From Alloascoidea hylecoeti (taxonomy: Eukaryota), in assembly GCA_001600815.1 (NCBI GenBank), contig BCKZ01000001.1, positions 974,613 through 1,038,612 on the forward strand: a DNA stretch of 64,000 nt. Reading direction: 5' to 3'. The notes beneath the pieces were generated by a model. It was not told the origin of the DNA. It made no database searches and saw only the letters and a list, made by a program, of their open reading frames with translations. Shown in pieces: positions 28,641 to 62,262 of this stretch. The stretch's first letter is position 1. Each line of letters starts with the position of its first letter. The position numbers were made by a program, and so were the translations under genes.

Positions 28641-28886
28641 ATCATGGACTTGACGAAATTGAAGGCAAACATTAGTATCGGAGAACCTTCCACAAACCCT
28701 GAACAAAATATATACAGATTAGACTAGGTTTTTATACGTATTTGAATATTTTTTGTATTTTTACTATTAAATCCATGGGCCATAGCCAGTGTAGCCACAT
28801 GATCAAACTCACTTCCATATAATTGATTTCAACTGTTTGCCATCATCCCCCTTCTTTTTAACTGGAACTTTAGCTATACAACCATC

Positions 28887-30409
28887 ATGGACTACAACCG
28901 GTCTCAATATGATCCTTCAAGACCTCCGCCAATTCCACCCCGCCCAGCTAACTGGCGTCCAACAATTTCCCAGCAACACATCCCTCCTGGACAAAGAGGA
29001 CTTCAACCTCACGGCCCAGCACACGGTCAGGGCTATAGATCGGTCTTATATTTTTGCAAGTGTGTAAACAAGATCTACATATTGTTTCATTCATACTTAC
29101 TAACCTTTTTCTTTCACTACTTTAGCTGGGCAATTTATGCTAGAAAACATAAACCAAAAGACATTCCATTTGATCATGTTTCTCATATCCTTTATGCCTT
29201 CTGTAACGTTGATGCCGGCTCAGGAGAAGTAAGATTAAGCGATACTTGGTCAGATCTTGAAATTTGTTTAGATGGAAATCAATCAAATCAACTGAAAGGC
29301 TGTTTCGGATCACTATTTACAATTAAACAAAAACATAGAAACTTAAAGTTAATGCTCTCGATTGGTGGTTGGACCTATTCACCTGCTTTAGCCCAAGGCT
29401 GTGATTCCGAAACTAAAAGACTCAATTTTGCTAAAACATCTGTTAAATTACTTTCTGAATTAGGTCTTGATGGAATTGATATAGATTGGGAATATCCAAA
29501 TGATCCACAACAAGCTTATGAAATTGTTGATTTATTATATAAAGTTAGAATTGAATTAGATCAATTTGCATCCTCTGTTGGGGCTCCAAGGGATCAATTT
29601 GAATTATCAATTGCTGCTCCCGCCAGTTTAGAAAAAATGCAAAAATTAAGAATTAGAGATATGGATAAATATTTATCATTTTGGAATGTTATGTGTTATG
29701 ATTTTGGAGGGTCTTGGAGTTCAAAAGTTGAACATTTGGGTAATTTATATGGAGGTGATATATCTGGTGATCAAGCTCTACGATATTATATGGATAATGG
29801 AGTTCCTGCTAATAAATTAGTTATGGGGATGCCTGCTTATGGTAAGTTATTTGATAGTGATAACATTTAATGTTATAGATCCTGTTCATTCAATTGAGAG
29901 GCTAACTAACTCTTCTTATTATAGGACGTGCTTTTGCAAATACAAATGGTTTCGGCCAATCTTTCTCGGGTGTGGGTGAAGGCTCATGGGAACAAGGCTG
30001 TTGGGACTATAAAGCTTTACCATTTCGAAATTCAGTTGAGCAATACGATCCCCGGTTGGTGGCTGCCTATTGTTATGACCCATCATCTCGAGTTTTCGTT
30101 TCTTATGATAATCAAGAATGTGCAAGGGCTAAAGCTGTAAGTATCACACCCTATCATCATTACTATAGGACTTTATTTCTAACTTTATATTAATATGCAT
30201 AGTCATATGTTCAACAGAAAAGATTAGGAGGAGGAATGTGGTGGGAATCAAGTGGAGATTTCCCCATAAGTCATCCAAAATCTCTTGTTTTAAACTTCGT
30301 GCATACTTTAGGTGGTTCATCGGCTATTGATAATTCAAATAATTGGTTAAATTACCCAGAAAGTAAATATAAAAATATTAGGGAAGGTCCTCGAAATAAA
30401 CAGTATTAA
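28887..30409 (+). CDS. GH18 chitinase (Cts2/Cht4-like, no signal peptide); introns 29060-29125, 29842-29924, 30137-30202
   Basis: YFCN|WAIY, SIGGWTYS, DGIDIDWEYP, MCYDF, SYDN and LGGGMWWESSGD. Confidence 0.92.
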
Positions 30410-32545: not shown

Positions 32546-34668
32546 TGTATAAAGATGAAATAAATTAAAAAGGGATTTCAATGAGAAAAGAGCAATATTA
32601 AAGTAGAAGAATAGAATTACTGTCAGCTTGAAATCTAGATATACACCGCAATCTTATAATGTATTGTTTTAGCTGTTAAGCTAAATTGCAGACATTAATT
32701 TACAATAAAGCCTCATGAGCTCATTTTCCCCGAGCTAAAAGTTAAAATTCTGCGGCTGGGAAAATCTATTAAGTAGATGTTGCAACTAATAATATTATAT
32801 TCCTTCAACACTTTTCAGTTACTATAAATTATTATTAAACTCATTAAATTTGATTTACTAATGGGAATAGCTTTAGATCTTTATACTATCTTAGCTAAGC
32901 CTGCATCTTTTTGTTAGTTTTCAATTGCAATTGTTTAATTCAAGTTTAAGATGTGAAAATTAAAGACGTCATATACAACGTTTAAACTTAATCCCAGCGA
33001 GATTCATATTCAGCCACACGATACACTAAAGAATCGGCCATTTCATGAATATTTAGTTAAAAAGTGGCTGACATTAAGTGGAAACATGATAAAACCTTAT
33101 AAACTTATAAAATTACATGCGGTAACATTTGATCATGTTCGATAACCGTAGGGTATTTAGATATGTATTGGGTATAATATAGGGCTATAAGGTCTTATGC
33201 CTACAGCCTTCCACTGGGTGTGTGCTGGTACGTTCGAATCACACGAATCGGTAAGCGCCGTATATTTTTTTTCCGCTGCAGAAAAGAAACTTACGACCTC
33301 TTAAATCAAGAAGAAGTCTGGACGCGGTAAATGCTTTGAACAAATTACACTTGAACCGAACACACCGCTTTCACAGATTGCCTCAGAGAATAGTGTGCAA
33401 TGCTATATGAAATAAAGAATGCATATGGTGGAGACTCCTAGAGGTTATATTAATTGGATTTTGATATCTATGTGCTTTATACTTTAATTATGAATAAGTT
33501 CTAATAATGAAACATGGAGGATTGTGTATGCTAAAGAATGACATTTAAAAAATAATATTATTATGTATATATAATAATTATAGGTTTATAATTATGTACG
33601 ATTACAATAGACTATAAGGAATTTTTCAGCTCTCCAAAGAACACCCTAAGAGCGCTACTGAAAAAATATGGATATGAAACATATTCGGAACCTAAGGGTC
33701 TTTTCTGAATGAGAAGAACCAAAGTAACAGAGGGATATGCTAAAAATAGAGTGGTCTCAGAGAATTTGGGATGCGGTCGTATTCAGTGGCAAATGTTCGG
33801 TCCCTACAAGATCCGCTTCCGGTGAAGTATAGGATATGCTTGACAGCAGTCACACTAGGCGTTTAAATCTTACAATTTGTAACATAAGGAGGTCAAACTT
33901 CAGTTTAAAGAGCTCGGGTGGTTGGGAATATTACTAATACTCCAGGTTAAAGTGGCAGCCGTTTATGATATTAAGGGCGCTATCACTCAATATTAAACTT
34001 AAAATGCCATTTTAGAGACCAATGGATTCTCTAGAGTTGGCACAACGTTATACGGTGTAAGGAATTGTAGAGTACTCAGTAGCTGGTTATAGTATTTATT
34101 TGGAGCGGTAACCCGAAAAAAGTGTCAGTTACGTTTAGACTTGGCCGTGTAGTGTAAATGAGATCAGAAACACATTTACTAAGTAAAGCATCGATGTAAA
34201 AAGTACACACCAATTATTATCAAGTCTTTTTAACTGGTCGTGGCTGTATTATATATAATACGATAATAGTAACCCGGAAATTCGCGCCGTTAAAAAACTG
34301 GGATCGTGAGATTAAGTGCACGATTAAAAGATCATCCTTGCGACCATCTTATGACACATTCCCAGTGGCGAAGCCATTCAAAGGGATTGCATGAGAAGCA
34401 TTAAGGACCCTCGGCAAACCTGTAGCAGTTACACCTGGAACCGTGGAAAGTCTGGCGGAAAGTCTCGCCCAATATTGTTGGGATGTCCGGGTAACCATTG
34501 GCCATTTCCGTGCGCAGCGCGCATTTTCATATGTTTTCATGCGCCATCATTACAACTATGTGTGGCGAATCTTCGTTCGGAAAGAGCGGATATACAGCTG
34601 TACATGTTATAATGTTATAAATCATCCTGCTTTATCTTATTTTCCTTTCCAACTCGTCTTTTGCTGTA

Positions 34669-37513
34669 ATGAAGAGGCAAAACTCCACTTCTTCTTCTCC
34701 TTCGAACCCTCCTTCTCCCAAAACCAACACATCTCCACAACCACCAAAACGACAAAGAACTCAGAAAGCCTGTGATTTTTGTAGGAAGAAGAAAATAAAA
34801 TGCGATGGAAAAAATCCGTGTTTGAATTGCAAAAACTATGCCGTTGACTGCGCCTACACCCATGTTGAAAAGAAAAGAAGCCCATTAAAGCGGTATGTTC
34901 TTCTTGCTATTTCATAGATACTTGTTTTCAGGAGACTAATGACATTTTGTAAAAAGCGCCCAGCACATCCGATCGATGGAATCCCGTTTACAACGGATGG
35001 AAGGAATGATTGAAACTTTAGTCAATAAACTTCAACCGGAAATATCGCACCAACACATCCCTGAATCTTCAACTACTCAAAATTTAATCGATGATCTGTC
35101 AACAGACCCTGAATCTTCCGATGATGATCAAGAAACAGTAAACAATACTACTACTCCCATGAGAATGGAGAAATCATTATCCCTCCACCTCACTCCAAAA
35201 CCATTTACTTCTAATCCAACTGTTGTAAAAGATAACGATTCTTTGAATCCATCTAGCGACAATGTTGATAATTTAGATTTTTTCGGCGCTCATAATAATT
35301 TCTCTTTATTTTCAACACAAGGTGTTCGGTGGATACATACAAAAGTACCGTTTACAAAAAAAGATTTCGAAGCATTAGTTGAGGGTAGAAAAAGAATTCA
35401 TTCGTATTTCATAACAACTTTCAAAGTTTGGGTTGAACCAATTGATACAACACAAGTAGTTGCATTACCACCACAATCAGATATGAATTTTGCGGTTGAT
35501 ACTTTTTTTAAACATATGACTGGAATTAATTTTGTATTTGATAAAAAAGATGTTCAAAGAATGGTTAATAATTATTATGATGAAGAGAAAAAAAATACTT
35601 ATGCTGAATTATTAACAATGAATTTAATTATTGTTATAGGTATACATTACATGATGGATTTAGACATTGCTAATAATAGTAATTCTGAATCTTCAACAAG
35701 ATTTAGAAACATGTTTCTTAAGAAATTTGAACCTGGTGAAGAAACTGCCTATGTTAAAAATACAATTTTTTATTATCATAGATTATCTGTTATCGGTGAA
35801 GGTATACGAACTGTTCAAGCAATGATCTTAATGGTTATTGTATTGACTCATATTTCTTCTCCTGATATTGGTTATATGATTGCTTCAACAACAATTAGAT
35901 TAGCTCAAGAAATGGGTCTTCATAGAAAAGAATCATTAAATGGTTTAAGCCCTGAAGAAGCTAAAAGAAGAAAATTATTATGGTGGACCTGTTATGCTGT
36001 TGATGTTGATATATCAATGAAACATGGTAGACCTGCAATAATTAATCTAAGAGATGTGTCAATGCCATGTGAGCCGATATCAAGAGATCTTTTAGATCAA
36101 TTTAACTTATTAGGTTCTTCTCTCTTAAATCCATTGAATGATATTTCTGAAGACTCTGAAGATAATTATGCCGAAATAGTTGATAAGAAAATTTCAACTT
36201 TTTTACCTATTTTTCAAGAGGTTATAATAAGATTAATGCAATCATTAAATATTATAGCAGGTGAATTTTATGAGGATTTATTTTCAACAAATGCATTTGA
36301 AAATAAATCGTTTCAAGATATTGTTGATAAAGCATTATTAATGGAATCAAAAATTGAAGCATGGAAAAATGCTTTACCAGTTATAATACAACCAGATTTA
36401 GATCAAACTCAATTTTGGAATGATACTAATTGTTCATATTTTATGATGAAAACTCAAAGTTCTGATTCTATCTTACATTATAAAGTTTCAAAAAGTTTAC
36501 TATTGTTGGTATTTTTTAATTATTATTATTATCAAATGGCTCTTCATAGAGTTGTTATAAGTTTCCCTGATGCTGCAAGTTCAGAATTATTATCTGATGG
36601 AAGAAATGGTAGAGTATTTGCAAAATTATCATTACAAAAATTTATAAAAGCTGCAAAATCAATACTAGAATTATCACGTAGTTATACATCAACATTAACA
36701 GTTTTTGCAAATTGTTTAATGTTTTATCCATTATCTGCTTTCATAGCGGTTTTTACACATTTTTTGGTCCATCCTCAACATCCTGATGCTTCAAAAAATT
36801 TAGAAATGATGAAACTTTTCATTAATGATTTTTCAGATACAAAATTTAATAATAATTTTGGTATTAATATGGGTTCAAAAATCTGGGATTATGCTGGGAA
36901 AATGTTAACTCATATTTTTGATCTTGCAACAAGACTTTCAGAAAAGGATAAAATAATGAGATCTCAAAATCAACGTTTGCAATATAACAACAATCTTCCT
37001 TTAACGAATAATGGGAATCGAATTTCACAGTCACAACCACAATCATCCTTCAATGGAAATAGTACTGTTAATAATGAAGCATGGAATCAATCTATTCCTC
37101 ATTCAGCGAATACTCTTTCTAGGAGTGCAACACACTTCCCTCCACCACCATTTCAACCTCCAACTCGAACAACTTCAAATATCCCATTAAACTTTAATGG
37201 TACAAATTGGCCTAGCTCAACATCACTTTCAGATTTATATGATTATAATAATAATGATTTAAATAGCCTTGTCAATGATAATAATCTTATTAATAGTAAT
37301 ACTCCATTTCTCAATGATTCAATGGATAATTATATGTATTCGGGAATGTTTTCAATACCAACTTTTATAACAGATGGAGTATTTGATAGTCCTTATTTAC
37401 CGAATTCAGAAGGTACCACTACTACTCCTAATAGTGTAGGACGACCAAATAGTACTACTGAAAATATGGGTGTGGACTTACCTACAGTTGTAATGGATGA
37501 TTATCATTCATAA
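34669..37513 (+). CDS. Zn(II)2Cys6 transcription factor with fungal TF middle domain; intron 34893-34956
   Basis: [28 protein letters not shown], middle homology region [11 protein letters not shown]...RRKLLWW, and an Asn-rich/acidic C-terminus. Confidence 0.92.
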
Positions 37514-38435
37514 TTTTTTATTTATAATTTCTCATCCTTTTTTTAAAAAAAGCTTTTGGCATTCATGATAATGCTTTGTTTTGGTTTCCATTTTTATGAA
37601 AGAGCTTACTTTTTTTTTAACTAGAAGTCAATTGTGTTGTAACTTAAGCTTATAAGTTGAATGAATTTTTGTTGTCAAACAATGCATTTATATATATAGC
37701 ATTTAGAAACTAACATCATATCATTAAGAGATAAATTTCCTTGTACATTATATAATAGTTACCCATATTTTGGGCAATTAAATGTTGATGGACCATTTAA
37801 ATTGTTTATATTACGATTGTTCATATTTTTCATTTGTTTGCTTGCTTGCTTGCTTGTTTGAATATTGTTATTTTTATTTAGGGTTTCATGTTTCATGAAA
37901 AAGCTGTATTTTACATTTACGGGTGTTTCATTTAATTTCGGCCCCATGACGTATTATGTATTCGACCACTTGATGAGCAAAATATTCCGCACATTTTTTA
38001 AGTTAAACAACCGGTTACAGAATACATTAATGTTTGGCCATGCTGAATACAAATATTAAAAAAAAATCCCCTTAGTTTTTGGCTAATGTGAGATTTTAAT
38101 GTTAATAGTTTCCTCCGTAAACAATATTTATCTTCTTTTACGTTCATTGAGCTTGCACTTGTAATATATTTAAAACACATATAATGAAGTAGTATGTAGA
38201 TCGACATCTTTTCTCGTCAGGCTTCAGAGGTTTTAGGTTTTTAAATGTATCCACCAAGTGGCCGAAATTAAGTGAAATGACTCTATGTTATATATTTAAA
38301 AAGAACAAACAAAGATGGATCACCATTAAGTAAAATAAGTGCATCTAAACATATATATAGCTATAGTCCAATATAGCTCGCAAACAAGTGCGGCAATAAT
38401 ATAATATATATGTTTAACTTTTGACTTAAATTTCA

Positions 38436-39611
38436 TTAATTAACATCCAATGGCTTCCTTGCAACAAAAAGCATCATTGGAGTAAATATCTCCATCTTTC
38501 CAGCATTCACTAAGTTAATTGCTGCATCTTCTAGTGTAGTCGTAACCTTGGTGGTTCCTTTAGGTGCAATCCCGATTGATTCCATCAATCTGCAACCATT
38601 TCTAGTGATAGATCTTCCTAGTGCTGAAATTCGAAAGTAGTTAAATAAGTCGCCAATTGCAGCGGTTTGAACATATTTCCATTCCCCGCTTAAGGGATAC
38701 CACCATGGAATCTCATCACCTAAAGCTGCCAAGTTCTTTTCACATTCAATTTCAAACCCAACTTTTTCAAGCGCTTTACGGGAAACCTCAACTTTGTACA
38801 TTTTTGGTATACCGTTACCAAATTCAATCTCATATGCAATTCTTCTATGCTCTGGATTTGTTTCATCGTATTTATCGGTCATAACCCATTCATAAACACC
38901 AAAGACACACCCTGGCTTCAAAACATTATAGATTTCTCCATACACTCTTTCTAAGACAGGGGCGTGTACAGTGGCTTCAATCGCATAAGCAGCATCAAAT
39001 GATTCAGGTTCAAAATCCATTTGCATGAAATCTCCTTTCACAAAAGATAATTTATCTTCTAGTTTGTATATTTTACTGTAATTCTTAGCGCGCTCTATTT
39101 GATAATCACTATTATTCAATCCAACAATTTCGCACCCAACGTAACGAGTGATCTCCATGGCTGGGCCGCCAACGCCACAACCAACATCAAGAACCTTCAT
39201 ATTTTCATCCAGGTTCATCTTATTAGCTAAGTAATGCTCATGACGGGCCTGTGCTTGCTTGAAAGTTTCACCTTTGTAGAAACGATTGAAATGAAAGTTG
39301 GAACTCCAGCCATACTCATAAAAATCCGTAACCAAATTATAAAAATGTTTAGTCATTGAAGAATAATCATCTAAACGAGTCTGTACGTTTTCAGGATCAG
39401 TTTTCCCATCCCAATTTTTGAAATAGCTATCAACAGAAACCTTTTGAGCATTTCTTCGTTTCTCAAGAATTGCGGTAAATCCTGTTTTTGCACCAATTCT
39501 ATTTCCATGTAAGGCATGAGCAAAGTCTAAGTCAGCTTTAAAATTCTTGTTTCCTAGTTTAGAAATGTGAGGTTCGGTAGAGGTTGAGTTAGAGTGAACT
39601 ATAGTGGACAT
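38436..39611 (-). CDS. ERG6: Sterol 24-C-methyltransferase
   Basis: YNLVTDFYEYGW, LDVGCGVGGP, YAIEATVHAP and GVYEW. Confidence 0.92.
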   Translation of the reverse strand: MSTIVHSNSTSTEPHISKLGNKNFKADLDFAHALHGNRIGAKTGFTAILEKRRNAQKVSVDSYFKNWDGKTDPENVQTRLDDYSSMTKHFYNLVTDFYEYGWSSNFHFNRFYKGETFKQAQARHEHYLANKMNLDENMKVLDVGCGVGGPAMEITRYVGCEIVGLNNSDYQIERAKNYSKIYKLEDKLSFVKGDFMQMDFEPESFDAAYAIEATVHAPVLERVYGEIYNVLKPGCVFGVYEWVMTDKYDETNPEHRRIAYEIEFGNGIPKMYKVEVSRKALEKVGFEIECEKNLAALGDEIPWWYPLSGEWKYVQTAAIGDLFNYFRISALGRSITRNGCRLMESIGIAPKGTTKVTTTLEDAAINLVNAGKMEIFTPMMLFVARKPLDVN

Positions 39612-41640
39612 TATTGAAACTTATATTTTAGCAGTTGAATGCTTAATTAAGAGGATAAGCTAATAAAAAGCAAGTTATAATTAATATTAAAATTCAATAC
39701 AATATCTTATACTTCAGCTTAGAATATTAACAGGAAACCTCTGCTTTATATAAAGAATGACAAAGCTAGAGTTGATATTTAATTTTGTAACCCGGTTAAA
39801 TCAAGTTTTTGAGACTGATCTATAGTTAATACATCAACAATGTTGTATCTCACTATATGCATAAATTGATTTCTTTATCATTTTTTCGGTACGAAAGGAA
39901 ATATTTGGTTCCTTATAATAGCAATAAATTATCAGCTGTTTAGAAGAGAAGAGTAAAGGGGAACATTTATTGGCCACTTTTGCAACACTTATTGCAGGAT
40001 TAAGATTATTATTGATCAGCCTGCAATTGTATAGGACAATGAATCATCTCATGATCATGATCAAATTGCTAGTAACATTACAAAGATAATCAATAGAATA
40101 TCTGAAAAGTTCTAATATAAACTTATAAGTTATGTAGATAAACATGTATAATGTTACACGTACTTTCCAATCAGGATAGGCACTAGATTATAGAGACCAA
40201 CAACTTTAATCATAGTTCTTTTGCTGGGTTCGACAATGAAAAAAAATGGTTTTTATAGCTCATTGGATTGTAGCTATTTTAATTTTAATAGCTAGGACTT
40301 ACCATATCTTATACTGTTTTTTCACTTGTTGTTAGCGAAATATTTTGGGAATATTATCGAAAAGTGTTAGATTAAGTTACATATGTATACCAATAAATGC
40401 GATAAATTATGCGATATAATTAAAATTAAAGGTTTGGAAATCAATTTTGATTTAAAAATTATTCAAAGAATCAATTACCATTGTTACGTATACCTTACAG
40501 GTACTCAGTTTAATCAATTCATATATTTAGCGATATTATTGAAAATTATTTAGCCAAGACGTACATATGATTCCGTATGAACCACTAAAGAAATGAAATA
40601 AAAGTACATGTACGAATTATTGGTTATAACTATAACTTAATATGGTAGTAAAACATTTATTTGTGCATTGGCAATTTGGCACGTTTAGTCTATTCGTTTT
40701 GTTTTACAACAATTCACTTGTGGTGTTTTGGTGAGGACCATTTGCATTTAAACATTTGGTCCATTTGTTGAGCAATGACTCACATACACTGGGAATAGAA
40801 AGTTGAAAATAATTAAGCATTAAATTTATAATTAATTTATTGAAATATACAATCATATATTTTGAATTGTTAAAGAATAATTATAAATATATATTTAAAT
40901 GCAAAATAAACATGAGGTTGAATAGCACAACAATAATATCTTTTCATAAAAAACAGAACAAATAGAGCAATTGCAAATTGATGCATAAGAGAATATAGAT
41001 AAAAAAAAATTAGACGAAAATGTTTGGGAAATATATACTAGAAACAAAAATTAGTTTAACAATATGAAAACATGAATGAAAAATGATAATTATAAAATAA
41101 ATCAAATAAAAACAAGGTTAATAAAGCAAGAAGGCACATTTAACTTTTTTCACTCTTTCTATCACCACTCTTCTTTGTAATCGATTATTATTAATCAGAA
41201 CACATCTACCATTAATGACATAAACGGGATGTATCTAATATAAAAGAAATTATGTATAGGAAAAAAATATGTATAGGAATAAAGTATGAATATGGTAGTT
41301 AGTTCTTTTTTGAACAAGCGTATTGTTCCTTGAACTAAAAATCTACCCCGTTCTTTCAATTAACTTTTAATAATGAATAATTGTAGATTTCGCCAATTAT
41401 CTTTAAACTCATGGTGAAAAAATAAATAATCAAAATTTATAAAATAATTATAAAAAAATAATGACCATATAGAGGGATGGAACATCAACTGAACGAAAAA
41501 GTCAAATAGTAAAAGTTAATGTCATGATAATAAAGAGAATACAGAAACTGGTCATTTTTATAATTTATCATAATGTGATTATAAAGAAACAAATGCTAGA
41601 ATAAATTTAGATATCGAACGTAGTTTCAATACTAACATAA

Positions 41641-44574
41641 TCATCGCATACTTTGGATTGATTTCCTGTCAGCAATCATAGCGTTTGTATCTTCATTTAA
41701 ATGTTTTGGTAGAGATGGACATTTAGAGATTGATTCTAATAATTCAGGAACCAAAGTAGAAAAATCATCGATTTTTCGTGATTTCAATTCAACTCTAATA
41801 TTTCCAATTTTTTGTACCAATTGTGGATGATATAAAAAGGGGAAACCTTGTAACAATGATAAAACTGAATCAACACAAAGTTCTTTTAAAATGTATTTAA
41901 AAGTCAATACTTTAAATATAATTCTTCTTGCTTCATAATCAGTTTCACATCTCATATGAATAAGTGTTAACATTTCTTCTCTAAATGATGATAATTTATC
42001 ATAATTTGATTCTTGTGTTGTTATAATTGCATCAGCTAATTCACGTACAGTTGTAACTGAACTGAAAATTTCTTTGTTATTATTTAACCAATCATTATCA
42101 TATTCAGTTTGTGCAAATGATTTTATATAATAAAAAAATAATATTGAATCATAAGGTAAAAAGAAAGTTTTTTCAACAAATGATTCTAAGAAGTCACGTA
42201 ATGTTGATGAATGAATTGAAAATTGAAGTGGCAAATCTAATGATTGTGGATATACATCATCGTTATTAGTTTTTAATTTATTTTTATTGACACTAGTATC
42301 ATTATTGTTTGTAAAATTATCCTTACCAGTCAAGTGGATGTTTTTAAATTTCTCAGTATCTTTATGCAATTCAGTATTAAGTTTTATTGCAATCGAACTT
42401 GCTTCACTGGCAGCACTAGTAGTACTAGAACTGCTAGTACATCTAGATGAAGTGCCTGCACTTATAGATGGGGATATATTATCCTCTTGGTCCAAAGCAC
42501 CCACATCCGTCATAATATTTCCCACGGCTTTACTTGGCGGTGTATTACCATTAGTCTTAAGTGATTTTGAGGATAAAACACTATTACCTAATCTCATAGA
42601 AGACGCCAGTTCGTTTCCACCATTAGAATTTGTAGGATAAATACTTTTCGATATGACTGAAGATATGGAGTCACGTTTATCAAGTATGGATGACCTAAAT
42701 CTATTAGGCGATGACGATCTTTTGGATAATGAGGATTCTAAACGAGAACTGGATTGAGAGGGAGAATTCGACCTAGTAGAAGTTCTTGATCTTGTCCTAG
42801 AATCGGATCTAGTTGATCTTGAACTCTTCAACTTTTCTTCATCATCATGTCTTAGTCTTGGAATTGATTGTGTTGATAGTACAGAAGAAATTGATTTTGA
42901 AGATGTTGATGCTGATATTTTGGGAGTTATTGTTTGCCTTGAAATAACATCATTCATAAAACTAAGATCGAGTGGATCAATATTCTCGTCATGTGGTTTC
43001 TCATTTGTATTATTTGAAGTTGGTTTTGTTTGTTCTTTATAATTAGACTTGTTGGATTCTTCTACTTGAGAAAAGTCTCGATATATTGAAGAGTTGGTAT
43101 GAACACCTGCCATAATACTTTCGTTAATATTTGCAATAAAACTCTTGTTTAGGTCTTTATATTTGAGACCAGGCAACTTACGTGCCATTCTTGAAATATT
43201 AAGAGAAGCTTCGCGTGCATGCTGTGGTTCAGAATCATGTTCAGGGACGATTTCCTTTACAGGAGAGTGTACCTCCTTTTCAGAATGTTTCTCATTCTTA
43301 TCCCCTTCTTGGCAAACAGTTTCATTGTTTTGAAGTTTGGGACAACTAGTGGATATGTGAGAGTTGCTACCACATTTAAAACATCGTTCCTCTTTTTTGT
43401 ACCTATAAAATTCTTCTCGTGTTAAATTCCAAAATTTCCAAGGCTGTTTATCTTTGATAGATTTTTTAGATCTGTGCCTTCTTCTTTTGGCATTTGGAGA
43501 AGGTTCTGTTGATGTAGTGGATGAAGGGGAGAACATAGAAGGACTATATGAGCTTCGAGGGCTCAATGAATTTCTAGGAGACGGTGCTCGAACGGGAGAC
43601 GATGATCGGATTGGAGACGATGATCGGATTGGAGACGATGATCGGATTGGAGACGATGATCGGATTGGAGATGAAGATCGGATTGGAGATGAAGATCGAA
43701 CAGGCGAATATGACCGAGTAGGAGAAGTTGGAATTTGAAGAGAATGCATCAGTGGAGATCCACTTAGATATGATGATAAAGATGAAATAGACGAAGAGTA
43801 TGATAGACGCGAATCTGAATCTTTATGCTCCAGTTGAGCTTTTGACTTTAGTTTAATTCTCTTAAATTTTTTCATAGTCTCATTAATAATTTCTTTCAAT
43901 TGGTGTGTAGATTTGATATCTCGTTCCAAAAGTTGGGTTCTTAAGTAAGGTTTAAACTCTTCATTTAAGCCTTCGTAAAACCATTGGGCCAAAATGGTAG
44001 GATCAAGATCGACAAACATTGTTGTATTTGATCTCAAGTCATTTAAATATCTTTGCCAATATTGTCTAAATGAGAGATTCCTCTGTCTAGCATTCTTCAA
44101 TAATAGCTTTGCATCGATGGCATCCAAAGAATATATGTTTTCGTCTTTAACGCACTCCAAAACAAGGTTATGGTACTCATTAAAGTTTCTGACATCGACT
44201 TCTTCAGTATTAATTAAGAGTTTGGAAATGGCAGCCGCTTTTCTAAAGTTTAAACAGTTGAATAACCATCTCGAGTATATTTCGATATCATTTCTTTTTG
44301 ATTCTGGAGCGACATTTTGATACGCTCTGGCGTATTGTTCCAGTAGTTCATGAACGGTAATCCCACCAAATTTCTCGACAGCCTGGTCCCAAGCCAGAAA
44401 ACTCAGAACCTTTTTATTCTCGAAGCCATCGTTTATGAAGCGTTCTACGATGAGGGGATGTAGTTGAGAGGAAGATGAATCCATACCTAGCTGTCGATTT
44501 GTCGTTTGTTCTGGCTCGAGCTTCTGGGCCAGGAGCAGACTAAATGGTTCTGTCATGGGGATTACCCGGTGCAT
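41641..44574 (-). CDS. Retrotransposon Gag-derived protein (Ty3/gypsy-like capsid + CCHC zinc knuckle + Ser-rich linker + C-terminal helical domain)
   Basis: An MHR-like segment LKNARQRNLSFRQYWQRY, then WFYEGLNEEFK, and the knuckle YKKEERCFKCGSNSHISTSC. No pol motifs or LTRs are visible. Confidence 0.72.
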   Translation of the reverse strand: MHRVIPMTEPFSLLLAQKLEPEQTTNRQLGMDSSSSQLHPLIVERFINDGFENKKVLSFLAWDQAVEKFGGITVHELLEQYARAYQNVAPESKRNDIEIYSRWLFNCLNFRKAAAISKLLINTEEVDVRNFNEYHNLVLECVKDENIYSLDAIDAKLLLKNARQRNLSFRQYWQRYLNDLRSNTTMFVDLDPTILAQWFYEGLNEEFKPYLRTQLLERDIKSTHQLKEIINETMKKFKRIKLKSKAQLEHKDSDSRLSYSSSISSLSSYLSGSPLMHSLQIPTSPTRSYSPVRSSSPIRSSSPIRSSSPIRSSSPIRSSSPIRSSSPVRAPSPRNSLSPRSSYSPSMFSPSSTTSTEPSPNAKRRRHRSKKSIKDKQPWKFWNLTREEFYRYKKEERCFKCGSNSHISTSCPKLQNNETVCQEGDKNEKHSEKEVHSPVKEIVPEHDSEPQHAREASLNISRMARKLPGLKYKDLNKSFIANINESIMAGVHTNSSIYRDFSQVEESNKSNYKEQTKPTSNNTNEKPHDENIDPLDLSFMNDVISRQTITPKISASTSSKSISSVLSTQSIPRLRHDDEEKLKSSRSTRSDSRTRSRTSTRSNSPSQSSSRLESSLSKRSSSPNRFRSSILDKRDSISSVISKSIYPTNSNGGNELASSMRLGNSVLSSKSLKTNGNTPPSKAVGNIMTDVGALDQEDNISPSISAGTSSRCTSSSSTTSAASEASSIAIKLNTELHKDTEKFKNIHLTGKDNFTNNNDTSVNKNKLKTNNDDVYPQSLDLPLQFSIHSSTLRDFLESFVEKTFFLPYDSILFFYYIKSFAQTEYDNDWLNNNKEIFSSVTTVRELADAIITTQESNYDKLSSFREEMLTLIHMRCETDYEARRIIFKVLTFKYILKELCVDSVLSLLQGFPFLYHPQLVQKIGNIRVELKSRKIDDFSTLVPELLESISKCPSLPKHLNEDTNAMIADRKSIQSMR
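43595..43698 (-). repeat. 18-bp coding minisatellite, about 6 copies (RSSSPI)
   Basis: Tandem ggagacgatgatcggatt and ggagatgaagatcggatt units on the + strand. Confidence 0.95.
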
Positions 44575-45829
44575 TTTATTGGAGAAGCATTATTATCATA
44601 ATTTTATTTAATTTTTGTAGGGAACCCGCCTCTTTTCTGCCTTTTCTGCATTGCAGTCTGCGTTCTACAACTTCCAAAGCCAGCCCTTCTGTTTCGTAAG
44701 AAAGGAGACTCCGGATCTGAGAAAGTGTCCCCTCATTGGCCCATTCTGCCACTGTTACTATTAATACTCTCCGATCTTTTGATTTGGGGAAAAAAATAGC
44801 AAAATTGCAATGTATACTCCCGGGCAATTGCTCTTTTATGTCCCCACCTCGGAATCACGTATGAACTATGGTGAAGATTAGTTTAAAATTCAACCTTCGT
44901 TCCCGCCACTTGTATAAACTGAGATCTCCTTAATTAGCAGTTGGGTCTTGTTATATGTTATGCGCGCGTCGCTTTTGAGCAAATGCACATTAAGCATTAT
45001 AAATTGGATATAAGTAACCTATAGATCATCTTTTACTTCGATGTTATAATTATAAATTTCCTTATTTGTCCCGTTGCACTAATATCAATGCTATTCTTGT
45101 CTCAAAGTCTTATTGTTGAACATTTGAATCCAAGCGATGAGCTTTACGATTATTCATAGAATCATAGCAAACTATATTAACAGTCCATTTTATTAAATCT
45201 CCATATAATAGTTGGTTGACTTCTTAATTAATATTCGCCTGAAATTTTCAAGTTTTACTGATCATACATGCTAATCGATGCAATCTCCTATTTTAGAAAA
45301 TAAAACTTGAAAATCCCTTTAAGCCTCGGTTCTCCTGGTTATGCCATTTCCGCTTAAATACTGTTGATATGTTTACTAGTTTCCTAAAATGCTTGACAGT
45401 AATGGTGATCATCGGATAAGTCATATTTTAACATTATTCTCTAAACTTCATGTTTGCCATTCTATTTATTTTTCAATAAACATTTGCTATGGTAACATAA
45501 TAAAACCCGCACCATTGTTACAAGTATGACATGATTTTTGTTGTAGCATTTAATAAACTCAATTGCATAATTAAACTTTTATTTTTATATATTGTTAGGG
45601 CCTACATTATTGTTAATTGGAGGCATTTACCAAACTTTCACAATTGCAATTACAACTAAGCCTAGGAATGGAAAACCTTCTCCGCATAAATCTTAAACAT
45701 TTCAATATACACTTTACTCTCATTAATATTCCAAATTCTTCAATCACTTGTGAACGTTTATTAGAAGTGTACTTCGCGATTGAATAGAAGCTATAAGCGT
45801 TGAAAGTCGGTACCTGCTTACTTTAGTAG

Positions 45830-46948
45830 TCATTGTCTATCCTGAGGATATACTAATCCAGAATTTTTCCGAATTTCATCTAAGATTCTCATCTCAACAA
45901 CAGTTTCTTTTAAAGGCATTTTATCGCTCTCTAATTTTCCAGCTGAGATATTTTCAGCCATTGCATCTGCTTCAAAAATGAATCCTTTTATCTCATTATT
46001 ATTTTCACAAGGCATCATTGTCTTTTCAATAGTCTCTTTCTTTGCGTCTCTGAAAGTAATCTTATATGAATCAGGTCTAGCAGGGCATAAATCACTACTT
46101 AAATACATTGTTCCTTCAGTTCCTTCCAATCTTGCAAAATCATGTGGCATATCACTAAATAAACTATTTGTTAATATTCCTTGTTTTCCATCTTTAGTAG
46201 TATAAATAATACTGGAAATGAAATCGGCTCCATTTTCAACAGATAAAGAAGATACAAATGAATAATCATCTTTATTATAACCTTCATTATTAGATTGATC
46301 ATGTAATAACATTCTTGCGAAGCCTAGACAATAAACACCAACGTCTAAAAGCATCCCAGCACCTAATTCATTGTTAACAACTCTTGAATTTTTAGAAACT
46401 GTATTTAAATCAACAAAGTACGAAAAATCAACAAATAATCTTTTAGCATCACCAATAATTTTCTTCTGATGAATTAAAAATTGAATTTCTTTAACAATTG
46501 GTAAAAATCTTGTCCAAAATGCTTCCATTAAAAAAACATTATTTTTTTTACATGATTCAATCATTAAATCTGTTTCTTTTAAATTAATTGATATTGGCTT
46601 TTCACAAAGTATATGTTTACCATGATTAGATGCTAAAAGAACTTGATCTTTATGAAATGAATGTGGTAAAGCAATATAAACAGCTTCAACATTTAGATCT
46701 TCGTAAACTTCAAGATATGAACCATATGCTTTTGTTTCGAAATTAGGTAGAGAAGTTAATTTTTTTGTAATGCTCGTTTCAATGAATTTCTCCGCTTTTG
46801 ATAACTGTCTTGCGCCAACAGCAGAGATCTGATGAGTTACGGATTTATCATAAGAATCAGATCTCATATTAATAGATAGAACAAGATCATTTACAAAGAA
46901 ACCGGCTATTTGACCTGTTCCAATAATTCCCCAACGAATTGTACTCAT
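45830..46948 (-). CDS. Gfo/Idh/MocA oxidoreductase (dihydrodiol / D-xylose dehydrogenase-like)
   Basis: IRWGIIGTGQIA, GKHILCEKP, FLMEAFWTRFLP and GMLLDVGVY. Confidence 0.9.
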   Translation of the reverse strand: MSTIRWGIIGTGQIAGFFVNDLVLSINMRSDSYDKSVTHQISAVGARQLSKAEKFIETSITKKLTSLPNFETKAYGSYLEVYEDLNVEAVYIALPHSFHKDQVLLASNHGKHILCEKPISINLKETDLMIESCKKNNVFLMEAFWTRFLPIVKEIQFLIHQKKIIGDAKRLFVDFSYFVDLNTVSKNSRVVNNELGAGMLLDVGVYCLGFARMLLHDQSNNEGYNKDDYSFVSSLSVENGADFISSIIYTTKDGKQGILTNSLFSDMPHDFARLEGTEGTMYLSSDLCPARPDSYKITFRDAKKETIEKTMMPCENNNEIKGFIFEADAMAENISAGKLESDKMPLKETVVEMRILDEIRKNSGLVYPQDRQ

Positions 46949-47301
46949 GTTTATAGTAGTAGTATAAGTGATTATTTAGACAAGGGAAAGTAAAAAACTA
47001 TTTTTACACGTTAAAGTACCTTATTTTGCATAACTAACGGGATATCTGGGTAACCCACAACGAAGCAAACCAACACACTTTCTTCAAGACATCAAGATCA
47101 ACCCAGAAAAAATACAACGACTCCCAAAAATGCCTTTACAACTAAAGAACTCCAAAAGATAACTAACAGAAAGATGAATTCGGAATAATTCCTAGTATCT
47201 AAGGATGTACGGATGTTTTCCCCTTTTGTTTACTCGACTCACCACCTTTTTTTTCCTCATCACAACATCTTCAAACACCAAAACACCCTTACTGAGTAGG
47301 T

Positions 47302-47956
47302 ATGGCACGTCTCTCTCATACTCCAACAGTCCGAGGAAAAGGCAAGGGAAAGGGAAAGCACCCACGATCAAGGTTGGCTGCTACTGCAATTGAAAGCCCT
47401 GTCTCCACTCCTGCTTCCAAAAGATCGAAACAAAAGTCTTCTCTTGGTGGGAAAAAGATCGCGAATATTTTGCGTAATCAGCGTATGTATTGTAATTATT
47501 TTCTTTCTATAGTCATCAATCTCAATGTTATACCTATCCTTATCAATGTTCACAATTGATGCAAAATCCAATTTTAAACGTTTTTAAACTTACTAACGCG
47601 AGATTATATTAGCTGGAGATCCAGTTCCAGAAAGACGAAGACGTTACCATCCAGGAACAGTTGCGCTTCGGGAAATTCGTAAATTTCAAAAGTCTACTGA
47701 TCTTTTGATTTTAAAATTGCCATTTGCACGTCTTGTTAGAGAAGTTGCAAATGATTTCGTTAACACCGACGCGTCGAGTGGTCTTCGTTGGCAATCAGTT
47801 GCAATTTTAGCTTTACAAGAAGCAGCTGAAGCTTATCTTGTTGGATTATTCGAGGATACAAATCTATTAGCTTTGCATGCTAAACGTGTTACTATTATGC
47901 AAAAGGATATACAATTGGCTAGACGAATACGTGGTGCTTGGGGTGGTTTGGGTTAA
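47302..47956 (+). CDS. CSE4: Centromeric histone H3 (CENP-A); intron 47483-47612
   Basis: Histone fold [23 protein letters not shown], with a long loop 1 and LRWQS (CenH3 signature) and a non-H3 N-terminal tail. Confidence 0.93.
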
Positions 47957-48942
47957 TTGCTTTGATTTTTGTTGACCCGTATCAAATGAAACCCAAGTTA
48001 GATCTGTGTTAATGTTAATACATTTATGGTTTATATACCAATTCATTTGTATCCATTAGTGTTGCTCATATTTTTTTTTGTTGAAATATTATTGAAAATG
48101 CTAGTAGTTAGCTTGTACCTATCTGTACTTTGTATTCAGGTTTTTCTTTTATATCGTTATATAAAGCTGCTTTTTTTTTTAATATAGGTTTCTACTATTC
48201 AATTACTACAATCATTTGATGTGTTCGATATGTGACGCGTCACATACACGGGGTTGGATTATGGTAATATAAGAAAAATTTAAAGAATATATTTATTAAA
48301 CCTAATATTGAAATATACTTAACTGCAACTAAGGCCTGAATTTATGGTATACGATAAAACTGAATATTTAAAACTAATAAACTTAAGAAAAAGAATTGTT
48401 TCTAAACAGTTGAGTATTAAAATTAAAAATAATACAAATTAAAGTAAAATATAATTAATAGTAATAAGAGAATATACAAAGTATAAAAATATATATAATA
48501 AAATAAATAAATATAGAGTAAAGAATAAAAACAAAGATAAATACACCAAGGGTCCTCTCTGTAAATAAATAAAAACAATTAACTAGCTAAATAAACTGAA
48601 TTATAATGACATAATGAATCAACCATTTTACTATCATCATAAAGGATTTTAGATAATATAATAATAATGAAAAAAAAAAGTTTAAATCATACCATTTCAA
48701 TTTTCAAAGATAACAAAAACAGATATATTTATAAGTATATCCTAAAAACAGGATAGAAGTCAATTGATAATCAAAAGGATGATATTTATAATTATCATTT
48801 ATACATCCATTTGATTAAGTATAAAATCCCTGACTAACAAAACAAGTATGAACATCATTTTATATCATATAATTCAATTTTCAATAATGATAATTGCAAA
48901 TTAAAATCGAAAAAGTTTATTTATAAAGGTTTTTAAAATTGT

Positions 48943-51866: not shown

Positions 51867-52649
51867 TTAATCAGACGATACCTTCTTTCTTCTGTTTAAC
51901 GCGCCTCCATTCCCTTGAGATGATGTTCCAGACCCGGAACCGGTTCCAATAATATTTTCATTCACATCATCATCATTAGAAGTAGCAGCCTTCTTTTTGT
52001 TTAACTTTTCAACTAAGAAATCAAAACTTTTCCCCATATTCTTATATTGGGCAGTGACATCCCTGATTTGCATTTCAACATCCTTCAAATGACCTTGTAA
52101 TTTAACCAATTCTTGAGACTCATTAATCTGATTTTTAGCAGATTTTTTACCGTCAATTTCAAGATTAACTAATTGTAATTGATGTTTATTTAATTTAACA
52201 ATTATGAAAAAGGTAACCAATTCAACGAATCCTAAGAATAAAGTAAAACCGGTAAGATATAAATTTCTTTGAGCATATAAATTACTGACTTTAAAATCAT
52301 CTTTTAAATATACCTTATCATTGTCAGGTATCATCGGATCGTGTCTTTGTTGATATCTTTGATATTTTGCCTGATCATTTCTGAAAACTTTATTAGCAGA
52401 ATCCAAAAACAGCAAGAATATAATTGAACCGATTGCAGTTGATATTAATTGGACCTGGTTATTTGAAGTTAAGATTGTAACGATTTTGATCTGTTGTGAT
52501 CTAATTTTTGTAGAAATAGGGGAGATTAAAACCACGTAGGACACAATCTCAAAGATGAGAACTAGAAAGACCTAGATTCCATGGTTAGTCGTGTGGCATC
52601 CCCTGTCTGGCAGTGTGAATATACTTACTAGAGAGAAATAAATAGTCAT
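51867..52649 (-). CDS. BAP29/BAP31 (Yet) family ER membrane protein; intron 52628-52572
   Basis: The splice joins MTIYFSL|VFLVLIFE. Also LLFLDS and LYAQRNLYLTGFTLFL, then a coiled coil. Confidence 0.88.
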
Positions 52650-58157: not shown

Positions 58158-59450
58158 TTAATGAGTTAAATAATTTAAACTGACCATTTCTAAAGCTCTC
58201 CCACTATAAATAGATCTTTTGTTTAATCCTTTACTACATCTTAAAGATCTAAAATATAATAATTCATTTAATTTTGATTTTGGTAATTTTAATAGTTTGC
58301 CAACTCTTTTTATTGTATTTGCAGTAAATAATCGTTGTTGTTTATTATTATTATTATCAGATTGATTAAAAGTATGATTTGAGAAATTTAAATTTGTATC
58401 CAAATCATTATTAGAATTAATTGACTGTTGATGCTCAATTGCTGATGATGTAGAAGATATGCACTTATTTTGAAAATCGGGGACAACAGCAGGTAATGCA
58501 AGGTTTAGTTTTTCATGCCTGCGATAATCATAACAAAGAGGGATAGTAATTGGTGATGAAGGGGCAGTAGGGGAAGGAGAAGAATGTGGAGATTCTAAAT
58601 CTGAAGAGCTATCATTATCAGTTAAAGAAGGAACTGAATCATAATCGAAATATTCATCGATTTTTAATTCCGTAGGTTTGGTAGTTGTAGATGAAGATGA
58701 AGATGAAGATGAAGATGTTGAGGTAAGTTGCTGTTTAGAGTCGGATTTCTCCTTTTCATCGTTAGAAGCAGTATTAGTATTCTTCTTTGATGTTTTAGTA
58801 ATAGATTTTGGGGTTGGAGTTTTATTAAGCATCGTAAAAATAGAAGAAAAATCCTCTTTTTCTAAAGGCCACCTAAATTTATCCAAATTCTTCGTACCTT
58901 CTATTAATTTTTGTAAATTTTCATTAAAGATCTTCATCTCATCAGCATTATCGGCAAAATCTAATGGAGTCACCAGTTCGGTAGTCAATTCTTCAGGGTT
59001 GAGTAAAGACATATCTGGAAAATCTGGATTCGAATTGTTTGTGGGTAGCATTGGAAAATCAGTAAAAAGGTCACGGAAAGAGACATCAGGACTTGTGATG
59101 CTTTCAAAGGGATGATGGTCTTCACTTACAACGTTATCTTTCAATGAGTCGTGCAATGAATCATGTAGATGGGAATAGATATTAAATGACGAGGAGGAGT
59201 CGAGAGTATCGAAATTTGGTTCAATTTCATCATCATAGAGCAAGACCTCTTCTTTTTTTGGAGAAGAAGGGGGAGATCTGGATCTTGATTTGTGCCTTTT
59301 CTGGATTCGTTTGTGGGTGGATGGTGGTGTAACAGTTCTTGGCCTTTTGGGAGGATTCAGCATCTCATCCATTCGGTCCAAATCGACGGCTTTTCTGACC
59401 CGAGAAGATCGTCTCAGGTGGCAATTGGAGGTTTCTGGAGTATTTGTCAT
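58158..59450 (-). CDS. Hypothetical low-complexity, probably nuclear protein
   Basis: A long ORF (first ATG at 59450) with basic NLS-like segments (LRRSSRVRK, PPKRPR), S/P-rich disorder and a short hydrophobic C-terminal motif. No family was recognised. Confidence 0.7.
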   Translation of the reverse strand: MTNTPETSNCHLRRSSRVRKAVDLDRMDEMLNPPKRPRTVTPPSTHKRIQKRHKSRSRSPPSSPKKEEVLLYDDEIEPNFDTLDSSSSFNIYSHLHDSLHDSLKDNVVSEDHHPFESITSPDVSFRDLFTDFPMLPTNNSNPDFPDMSLLNPEELTTELVTPLDFADNADEMKIFNENLQKLIEGTKNLDKFRWPLEKEDFSSIFTMLNKTPTPKSITKTSKKNTNTASNDEKEKSDSKQQLTSTSSSSSSSSSTTTKPTELKIDEYFDYDSVPSLTDNDSSSDLESPHSSPSPTAPSSPITIPLCYDYRRHEKLNLALPAVVPDFQNKCISSTSSAIEHQQSINSNNDLDTNLNFSNHTFNQSDNNNNKQQRLFTANTIKRVGKLLKLPKSKLNELLYFRSLRCSKGLNKRSIYSGRALEMVSLNYLTH

Positions 59451-59773: not shown

Positions 59774-59847
59774 GGTTCGATGGTCTAGTTGGTTATGGCA
59801 TCTGCTTAACACGCAGAACGTCCCCAGTTCGATCCTGGGTCGAATCA
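59774..59847 (+). tRNA. tRNA-Val(AAC)
   Basis: Cloverleaf with acceptor GGTTCGA/TCGAATC, anticodon arm TCTGC-TTAACAC-GCAGA and T arm CCCAG-TTCGATC-CTGGG, followed by an oligo-T terminator. Confidence 0.97.
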
Positions 59848-62188: not shown

Positions 62189-62262
62189 TGATTCGACCCA
62201 GGATCGAACTGGGGACGTTCTGCGTGTTAAGCAGATGCCATAACCAACTAGACCATCGAACC
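62189..62262 (-). tRNA. tRNA-Val(AAC), identical second copy
   Basis: Exact reverse complement of 59774-59847. Confidence 0.97.

Follow-up and report, generated by a model that had tools for sequence, protein, structure and literature searches.

The locus of P0001

P0001 is a gene of the yeast-like ascomycete Alloascoidea hylecoeti, located in a stretch of 64,000 nucleotides (nt) of genomic DNA (GenBank assembly GCA_001600815.1, contig BCKZ01000001.1, positions 974,613 to 1,038,612 of the forward strand) that was analysed as a whole and is called the window here; positions are counted from its first letter. P0001 consists of an uninterrupted reading frame of 977 codons from ATG to stop on the minus strand (2,934 nt). 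At the guanine–cytosine (GC) content of this open reading frame (ORF), i.e. 35%, the chance of 977 stop-free codons is about 3e-32, and its codon use lies inside the range of the neighbouring genes. Downstream it is followed by an ERG6-type gene for a sterol 24-C-methyltransferase (38436–39611; Pfam Sterol_MT_C, E 2e-26), whose product, which we take to resemble Erg6 of Saccharomyces cerevisiae, is 60–68% identical to those of metagenomic fungal loci, and upstream lies a gene for a GFO/IDH/MocA oxidoreductase (45830–46948; Pfam E 4e-18). An earlier reading of the DNA, made from its letters alone (the sequence-only reading), had placed an uninterrupted 977-residue ORF between these two genes, just as we find it with both neighbours matched in Pfam, and had proposed that it is a capsid gene captured by the host from a Ty3/gypsy retrotransposon. 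The strings that it quoted were all located in P0001 at the places it had given, i.e. EKFGG at residues 67–71, ELLEQY at 76–81, LKNARQRNLSFRQYWQRY at 159–176, WFYEGLNEEFK at 198–208 and IKSTHQL at 220–226. The features of the gene and its product are collected in table 1.

Table 1. Features of P0001 and its upstream region, with positions in the window and the basis of each assignment.
Feature	Position	Strand	Basis
P0001, intact 977-residue ORF, entire gene as far as visible	41641..44574	-	ORF list; codon use
Probable promoter / 5' leader of P0001	44575..44974	-	GC 0.40–0.41 versus 0.20–0.31 in other flanking intergenic DNA
N-terminal all-helical capsid-like domain, residues 55–255	43810..44412	-	low-confidence AlphaFold secondary structure; ESM Atlas look-alikes
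Part with Retrotrans_gag (PF03732) signal, residues 159–260; best stretch 200–251 = 43822–43977	43795..44100	-	Pfam
Eight tandem S-P-x-R sites, residues 284–329: SPTR, SPVR, SPIR x5, SPVR	43588..43725	-	sequence count
Basic lead-in, residues 355–397, includes KRRRHRSKKSIKDK	43384..43512	-	lysine plus arginine (K+R) 0.32 over residues 351–400
Retroviral-type zinc knuckle CX2CX4HX4C, CFKCGSNSHISTSC, residues 398–411	43342..43383	-	shuffles; Pfam zf-CCHC
Ser/Thr/Asn-rich, probably disordered region, residues 430–779	42238..43287	-	composition
C-terminal hydrophobic Ser-poor domain, residues 780–977, family not assigned	41644..42237	-	composition

Whether P0001 belongs to a mobile element or to the host is a question on which the surrounding DNA has a direct bearing. 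Neither a D[ST]G nor a YxDD motif occurs in the protein, and a Pfam scan at E <= 0.001 found no transposon family in 61 further ORFs, nor in 8 that were scanned separately; the 61 were drawn from the 118 frames in the window that extend from stop to stop over 70 amino acids or more, with omission of these 8 and of frames judged by eye to overlap larger ORFs. No direct repeat resembling a long terminal repeat (LTR) was detected around P0001 or across the 64 kb. Around the gene, direct repeats are confined to an 18-nt tandem array within it, and in the 64 kb as a whole two identical tRNA-Val genes make up the only other repeat of at least 50 nt. Both flanks (39612–41640 and 44575–45829) are AT-rich and contain short junk frames only, and inspection by eye of the 400 nt upstream of the gene revealed nothing like a primer-binding site or an LTR. 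The earlier observation that protease, reverse transcriptase, RNase H and integrase motifs as well as an LTR pair are all missing is thus borne out.

Logan contigs of sequencing runs from three studies (X1, which may be the source of the window; X3, a wood-decay metagenome; X4, another isolate) were placed on positions 38000–48000; no RNA run was among those listed as containing this sequence. In each run the 3' part of the ORF, up to 43624, shares a contig with the 3' flank, while the remainder, from 43642 on and including the start codon, is joined to the 5' flank on a second contig. The sole break thus lies in the 18-nt array, where depth is about twofold over a 41-nt piece; in all three runs, contig depth over P0001 equals that of the flanks. 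As near-identical extra copies would break contigs at the ends of the ORF, and no such break occurs, P0001 appears to be present as a single copy. The variant haplotype found in both X3 and X4 differs across these 10 kb by 22 substitutions and 2 indels. Two of these differences fall into the 2,934 nt of P0001, both at third codon positions and both synonymous (L907, L279), and the others comprise 9 single-nucleotide polymorphisms and an insertion of 5 nt within the intergenic DNA on either side (3,284 nt), four differences in the oxidoreductase gene (three non-synonymous, one synonymous), a synonymous one in ERG6, and six substitutions plus a 1-nt deletion in the rest of the 10 kb. The lower variant density in P0001 is suggestive only (Fisher p 0.07). 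Taking contig joins, depth and variants together, we read P0001 as a fixed, constrained, single-copy gene, and the two synonymous strain differences along with the contig joins accord better with a host gene than with a mobile copy. With its unique position, free of other element parts, the locus is that expected of a co-opted gag gene, provided that the probable Gag origin of the protein is correct.

The Gag-like module and what follows it

When the whole of P0001 is compared with Pfam at E <= 1, two matches only are obtained, namely Retrotrans_gag (E 0.11), which is chiefly a Ty3/gypsy family, and zf-CCHC (E 0.095), the curated cut-offs being 24.1 and 20.8 bits, respectively. For Retrotrans_gag, the isolated domain yields E 0.007–0.009 (16.6–17.0 bits) and residues 159–260 alone yield E 0.0013 (19.4 bits), all below the cut-off, and over all readings of the protein the scores span 13.2–19.4 bits. 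Retrotrans_gag nevertheless ranks first in every Pfam reading, also when CTG is read as Ser or Ala (genetic codes 12 and 26). Its signal covers residues ~159–252 only, the best HMMER stretch placing residues 200–251 on positions 33–84 of the profile, and Ty3_capsid (PF19259) gave no Pfam match in P0001. A search of the ESM Atlas with residues 31–255, i.e. with the knuckle excluded, has a best score of 0.93, with 16 of 30 matches in the Retrotrans_gag set; Ty3_capsid, DUF1759, DUF7041 and a caulimovirus coat domain appear in further rows, and Retrotrans_gag, together with Ty3_capsid, heads the named ones.

From the sequence-only reading, which had recognized a Ty3/gypsy capsid pattern over residues ~65–235, what remains is that Retrotrans_gag is the best Pfam match; the match stays below the cut-off and is confined to residues ~159–252, and the string EKFGG..ELLEQY turns out to be no hallmark of capsids, as it is matched only in three proteins of bacterial type. 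These proteins (P0002–P0004, repeat proteins of 1,046–1,133 amino acids) were the three matches at E <= 0.001 that phmmer returned for residues 31–255. We rejected them as relatives and regard them as chance matches, with 'ERFGG..EL.E' units matched in 6–9 stretches each. By eye, they have an ATPase-like N-terminal part followed by 6–9 repeats of ~36–38 residues, and it is the repeat unit 'VVERFGGS..ELQE.VA.AL.NKG' that matches query residues ~50–93 by chance. The label 'MHR-like', used for a part of the supposed pattern, is to be dropped.

Since no alignment of homologues could be built, both AlphaFold models are single-sequence models, and both are poor, with a mean predicted local distance difference test score (pLDDT) of 45 for residues 31–427 and of 49 for residues 55–260. 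In the latter model nine helices are predicted. This number agrees with the 4 + 5 helices described for the Ty3 capsid (PMC6525542), an agreement that is non-specific and comes from a poor model. Fold searches with the two models gave generic helical matches and no capsid match, the quality of the models being too low for such searches to decide on the fold.

The second element that recalls a Gag protein is the putative nucleocapsid part. Its CX2CX4HX4C pattern arises in 1 of 20,000 shuffles of P0001, a protein with just 10 cysteines; the isolated domain matches zf-CCHC with E 0.0015 (18.9 bits versus the cut-off of 20.8), and the closest sequence match for the knuckle in the PDB is the nucleocapsid knuckle of human immunodeficiency virus (HIV; E 0.68). 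As in a nucleocapsid, the knuckle is positioned C-terminally to the helical domain and directly behind a basic stretch, and here the sequence-only reading, which had described precisely such a knuckle with a basic lead-in, was right.

Between the helical domain and the basic stretch, a Ser/Pro linker (residues 256–354) holds the eight SPxR sites, which are partly encoded by the 18-nt tandem array (43577–43698, 6.8 copies). The established consensus for cyclin-dependent kinases (Cdk) is S/T-P-x-K/R, and all eight sites match it fully. Behind the knuckle, the sequence-only reading had noted about 570 mostly Ser-rich residues, which is accurate up to residue ~779 and inaccurate for residues ~780–977, which are hydrophobic and Ser-poor. 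The Ser-rich region includes an Arg/Ser-rich stretch (residues 585–611; 42742–42822), and for residues 436–769 there is no Pfam match at E <= 10. The C-terminal region, which by its composition is likely to be folded, has a single and sub-threshold Pfam match, DUF5752 (E 0.003, 17.3 bits versus a cut-off of 23), no match in the ESM Atlas and no relatives in the protein search. That it might be a second capsid copy was considered and rejected, as it shows no similarity to the N-terminal domain, no ESM match and a DUF5752 match that is sub-threshold. Judged by its sequence, P0001 has a Gag-like module fused to some other sequence, the ~560 non-Gag residues being in the same frame.

No homologous proteins were found for P0001 as a whole, for residues 780–977 or for residues 31–255 (E <= 10) in searches that covered length bands near that of the query, and no relatives appeared in metagenome contigs or in viral contigs. 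A search was also anchored on ERG6. Of 471 pattern matches, 435 encode a relative of ERG6, and from these the 80 best (up to 68% identity, 21 of them with at least 5 kb upstream, and no close relative of this organism in the set) were inspected. In the flanks of these 80 loci, tblastn at E <= 10 detected no real P0001, and at E <= 1 with low-complexity masking neither P0001 nor its neighbours gave any match. The best tblastn match of P0001 (E 0.25) was rejected because it falls inside a 1,314-residue ORF that is clearly another gene; at this locus (L003), ERG6 adjoins that ORF and a bZIP-like one. Nor did the best 80 of the 435 loci contain an ORF for a Gag with a knuckle. This shows only that P0001 is no general neighbour of ERG6. 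As the oxidoreductase, Zn-cluster factor, F-BAR/SH3 protein and histone genes are absent from the same flanks as well, i.e. as the neighbours are not syntenic either, the absence of P0001 from these loci says little.

Composition and other genes of the window

The GC content at third codon positions (GC3) declines along P0001, being 0.41 over its first 200 codons and 0.12 over its last 200, and the region upstream of its start codon is rich in GC (table 1). A foreign origin of the gene was considered on these grounds and rejected, as other genes of the window are alike and this is a habit of the genome; GC-rich upstream regions are common in the window, so the composition of the P0001 leader is no evidence of foreign origin. 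Across the window, GC is highest at promoters and at the 5' ends of genes, reaching 0.45 in the 400 nt upstream of genes compared with a mean of 0.32, and GC3 often declines from 5' to 3' inside genes, e.g. from 0.30 to 0.15 in a permease gene and from 0.36 to 0.15 in ORF 58158–59450.

Just downstream of ERG6, at ~38250–38286, lies a short dispersed repeat from which contigs of all three runs (X1, X3 and X4) continue in several different ways, and depth in the bin 38000–38333 is about twofold. On the plus strand at 47296–47953, the window encodes a centromeric-type histone H3 variant (CenH3/Cse4-like) with its fold at 47597–47953 (Pfam Histone, E 4e-40) and a loop 1 that is presumably longer than that of canonical H3. 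The tail of this protein, which is not H3-like and is rich in KG repeats, is found in another frame, in ORF 47302–47559, which implies an intron or a frameshift. X3 and X4 lack one nucleotide at 47247, and at 47355 the depth becomes twofold. The two tRNA-Val(AAC) genes mentioned above (59774–59847 and 62189–62262) are identical, inverted and separated by 2,341 nt, with no LTR-like repeat adjoining them.

In four genes, short introns distribute the coding sequence over two frames, i.e. in those for a kinesin (5315–7030), a GH18 chitinase (28827–30190), a Zn-cluster transcription factor (34621–37513) and Bap31 (51870–52571); in two of the four, the introns measure ~65–70 nt and have GTAAGT or GTATGT at their 5' sites and ACTAAT branch points. 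The genes of the window are compact, with few and short introns seen, and we take the window to be richer in introns than Saccharomyces genes. Together with the Erg6 likeness, these traits suit an ascomycete of the budding-yeast kind.

Interpretation and known systems

Overall, we think that P0001 probably represents a co-opted and highly diverged Gag module of the Ty3/gypsy type, set into a larger host protein that may be regulated by phosphorylation. The Gag ancestry of the N-terminal part, taken by itself, appears somewhat firmer and quite probable on sequence grounds, because two methods rank Gag first without the help of the knuckle, and a knuckle with a basic lead-in then stands where a Gag protein would have it. 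Of the host-captured capsid gene proposed earlier, it is the stand-alone locus without pol genes and LTRs, with contigs running into unique flanks, that has held up well; the Gag origin, with its sub-cut-off scores, is only probable. P0001 is therefore a plausible new co-opted gag gene, not a proven one.

How such a protein could have arisen and might operate can be sketched as follows. The first ~410 residues would have come from the gag gene of an LTR element, with the Ty3/gypsy group as the most similar one, with pol genes and LTRs having been lost, and this module would have been joined to the eight SPxR sites, to ~350 Ser-rich disordered residues and to a folded C-terminal domain. The basic region and the knuckle may bind nucleic acid, probably RNA, and the capsid-like domain may mediate self-association. 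Phosphorylation of the SPxR cluster, located as it is between the two Gag parts, could switch binding or self-association, and a cellular partner could be contacted by the C-terminal domain. An RNA–protein scaffold and a dominant-negative inhibitor of the assembly of related retroelements are both conceivable roles. We lean slightly towards the scaffold, because the Gag part has diverged so far from all Gags sampled that it does not look like a decoy for an element active at present. The complete picture, i.e. an old Ty3/gypsy-type Gag exaptation in a budding yeast that yields an assembling, RNA-binding scaffold switched in the cell cycle by Cdk-type SPxR phosphorylation and linked to a partner by its C-terminus, is one that we consider unlikely in its entirety.

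Several observations weigh against a Gag origin and have to be set beside those in its favour. Neither the Gag nor the knuckle match attains the curated Pfam cut-off, residues 55–158 have no Gag match in Pfam, and the unrelated family Cas8b_C scores E 0.01–0.016 on the same K/E-rich helical stretch, so the Gag match stands less than 10-fold above visible noise. The register of the HMMER match presumably differs from that of the earlier motif reading. The ESM match shares 127 of 256 features, which is in the tool's range for chance or distant relatives; phmmer, run exhaustively with residues 31–255 against 1.84 billion representatives, found no Gag, and a sequence search of the PDB found no capsid, only the HIV knuckle and unrelated proteins. 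Evidence of selection is very thin as well, consisting of two polymorphisms only. P0001 could accordingly be a fast-evolving, lineage-restricted yeast protein that is not derived from Gag at all, combines a helical N-terminus and extended Ser-rich disorder with one CCHC knuckle of the cellular type and resembles a capsid because K/E/L-rich helices do so by chance. All the Gag evidence being sub-threshold, the spurious Cas8b_C match at E 0.01, the restriction of EKFGG..ELLEQY matches to bacterial-type repeat proteins and the few features shared in the ESM match would all suit such a protein. Chance would have to produce three things together, however, as two knuckle-free searches rank Gag families first and a knuckle that shuffling seldom yields stands in Gag order after a basic stretch, and we therefore hold this origin, the main alternative, to be less likely.

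If the N-terminal part is Gag, it might still have no host function and belong to a decaying or non-autonomous remnant, or be the gag gene of an unsampled element, which would be intact because it is young. A Gag-like N-terminus with a knuckle, and the lack of an orthologue in the collections searched, would be in line with this. Yet the 64 kb hold no LTRs, pol remnants or repeats of the element type, contigs from three studies join the ends of the ORF to unique flanks at flank depth, and a young insertion should resemble a sampled Gag, whereas no Gag resembling P0001 was found among the 1.84 billion representatives; moreover, ~560 non-Gag residues including the C-terminal domain share the frame, both strain differences are synonymous and codon use is in the host range, all of which makes a remnant unlikely. 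Still less probable, in our view, is a derivation of the N-terminal part from another lineage of the Ortervirales, i.e. Ty1/copia, Bel-Pao or a caulimovirus-like coat protein. DUF1759, which we take to be a Bel-Pao gag family, DUF7041 and the caulimovirus coat do occur among the lower-ranked rows of the ESM Atlas, and the fungal gag co-options in print are of copia (two) and Bel-Pao (one) origin (main text of PMC8321522). Against this, Retrotrans_gag is the sole capsid family that Pfam returns for P0001, and it heads the ESM rows together with Ty3_capsid.

P0001 also illustrates a limit of detection, as its Gag-like module is invisible to single-sequence searches and sub-cut-off in Pfam. Animals provide well-documented cases of gag co-option; from fungi only three are on record, and Ty3/gypsy is not among their sources. 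Should the reading that we prefer, a co-opted Ty3/gypsy-type Gag module, be true, a tractable yeast with a domesticated capsid would permit direct tests of assembly, RNA binding and interference with retroelements, and P0001 would show how disordered, phosphorylatable linkers get grafted onto a domesticated capsid.

Among known systems, Gag-derived inhibitors offer one comparison. Ty1 p22/p18 and mouse Fv1 are Gag-derived restriction factors, and in P0001, too, a putative Gag fragment without pol could interfere with particle assembly; for P0001, however, no related element is known, and its Gag part is too diverged from the Gags sampled to argue for co-assembly. In its order of parts P0001 resembles Gag3 of Ty3 (Ty3/gypsy, Metaviridae) from S. 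cerevisiae, in which a helical capsid region is followed by a basic stretch and one CX2CX4HX4C knuckle, as is the predicted helical, capsid-like region of P0001. Unlike Gag3, however, it is single copy and comes without pol, LTR and frameshift site, its spacer between capsid-like domain and knuckle is ~145 residues long and contains the SPxR repeats, and ~560 residues more follow behind the knuckle.

With the co-opted Ty3/gypsy gag genes of animals, i.e. Arc/dArc, PEG10/RTL and PNMA, P0001 has in common that it is Gag-only and without LTRs at a fixed host locus, whereas it differs in residing in a fungus, in being known from sequence alone and in its C-terminal domain, for which no counterpart was found. 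Ty3 and Arc are given as only 10–14% identical (PMC6525542), so extreme divergence is normal among co-opted gag genes, and a paper on retrotransposon-derived mammalian genes names 'intrinsically disordered regions' in its title (PMC11299033). The literature searched (supplements excluded) contained no gag co-option in a budding yeast; the stem 'Saccharomyc' is absent from the main text of Wang and Han 2021 (PMC8321522), and a screen for fusions of fungal host genes with transposable elements describes, in the sections available, a fusion of a Bel-Pao gag with PEX14 and nothing like P0001 (PMC10799480). The three fungal co-options of Wang and Han, Crtg12–14, are listed there as two of Ty1/copia and one of Bel-Pao type, with hosts in Pleosporales-related families and in the Tremellales/Trichosporonales (PMC8321522). 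Like P0001, these are single-copy gag-derived genes of fungi; P0001 would stand apart from them by its Ty3/gypsy likeness and its yeast-like ascomycete host.

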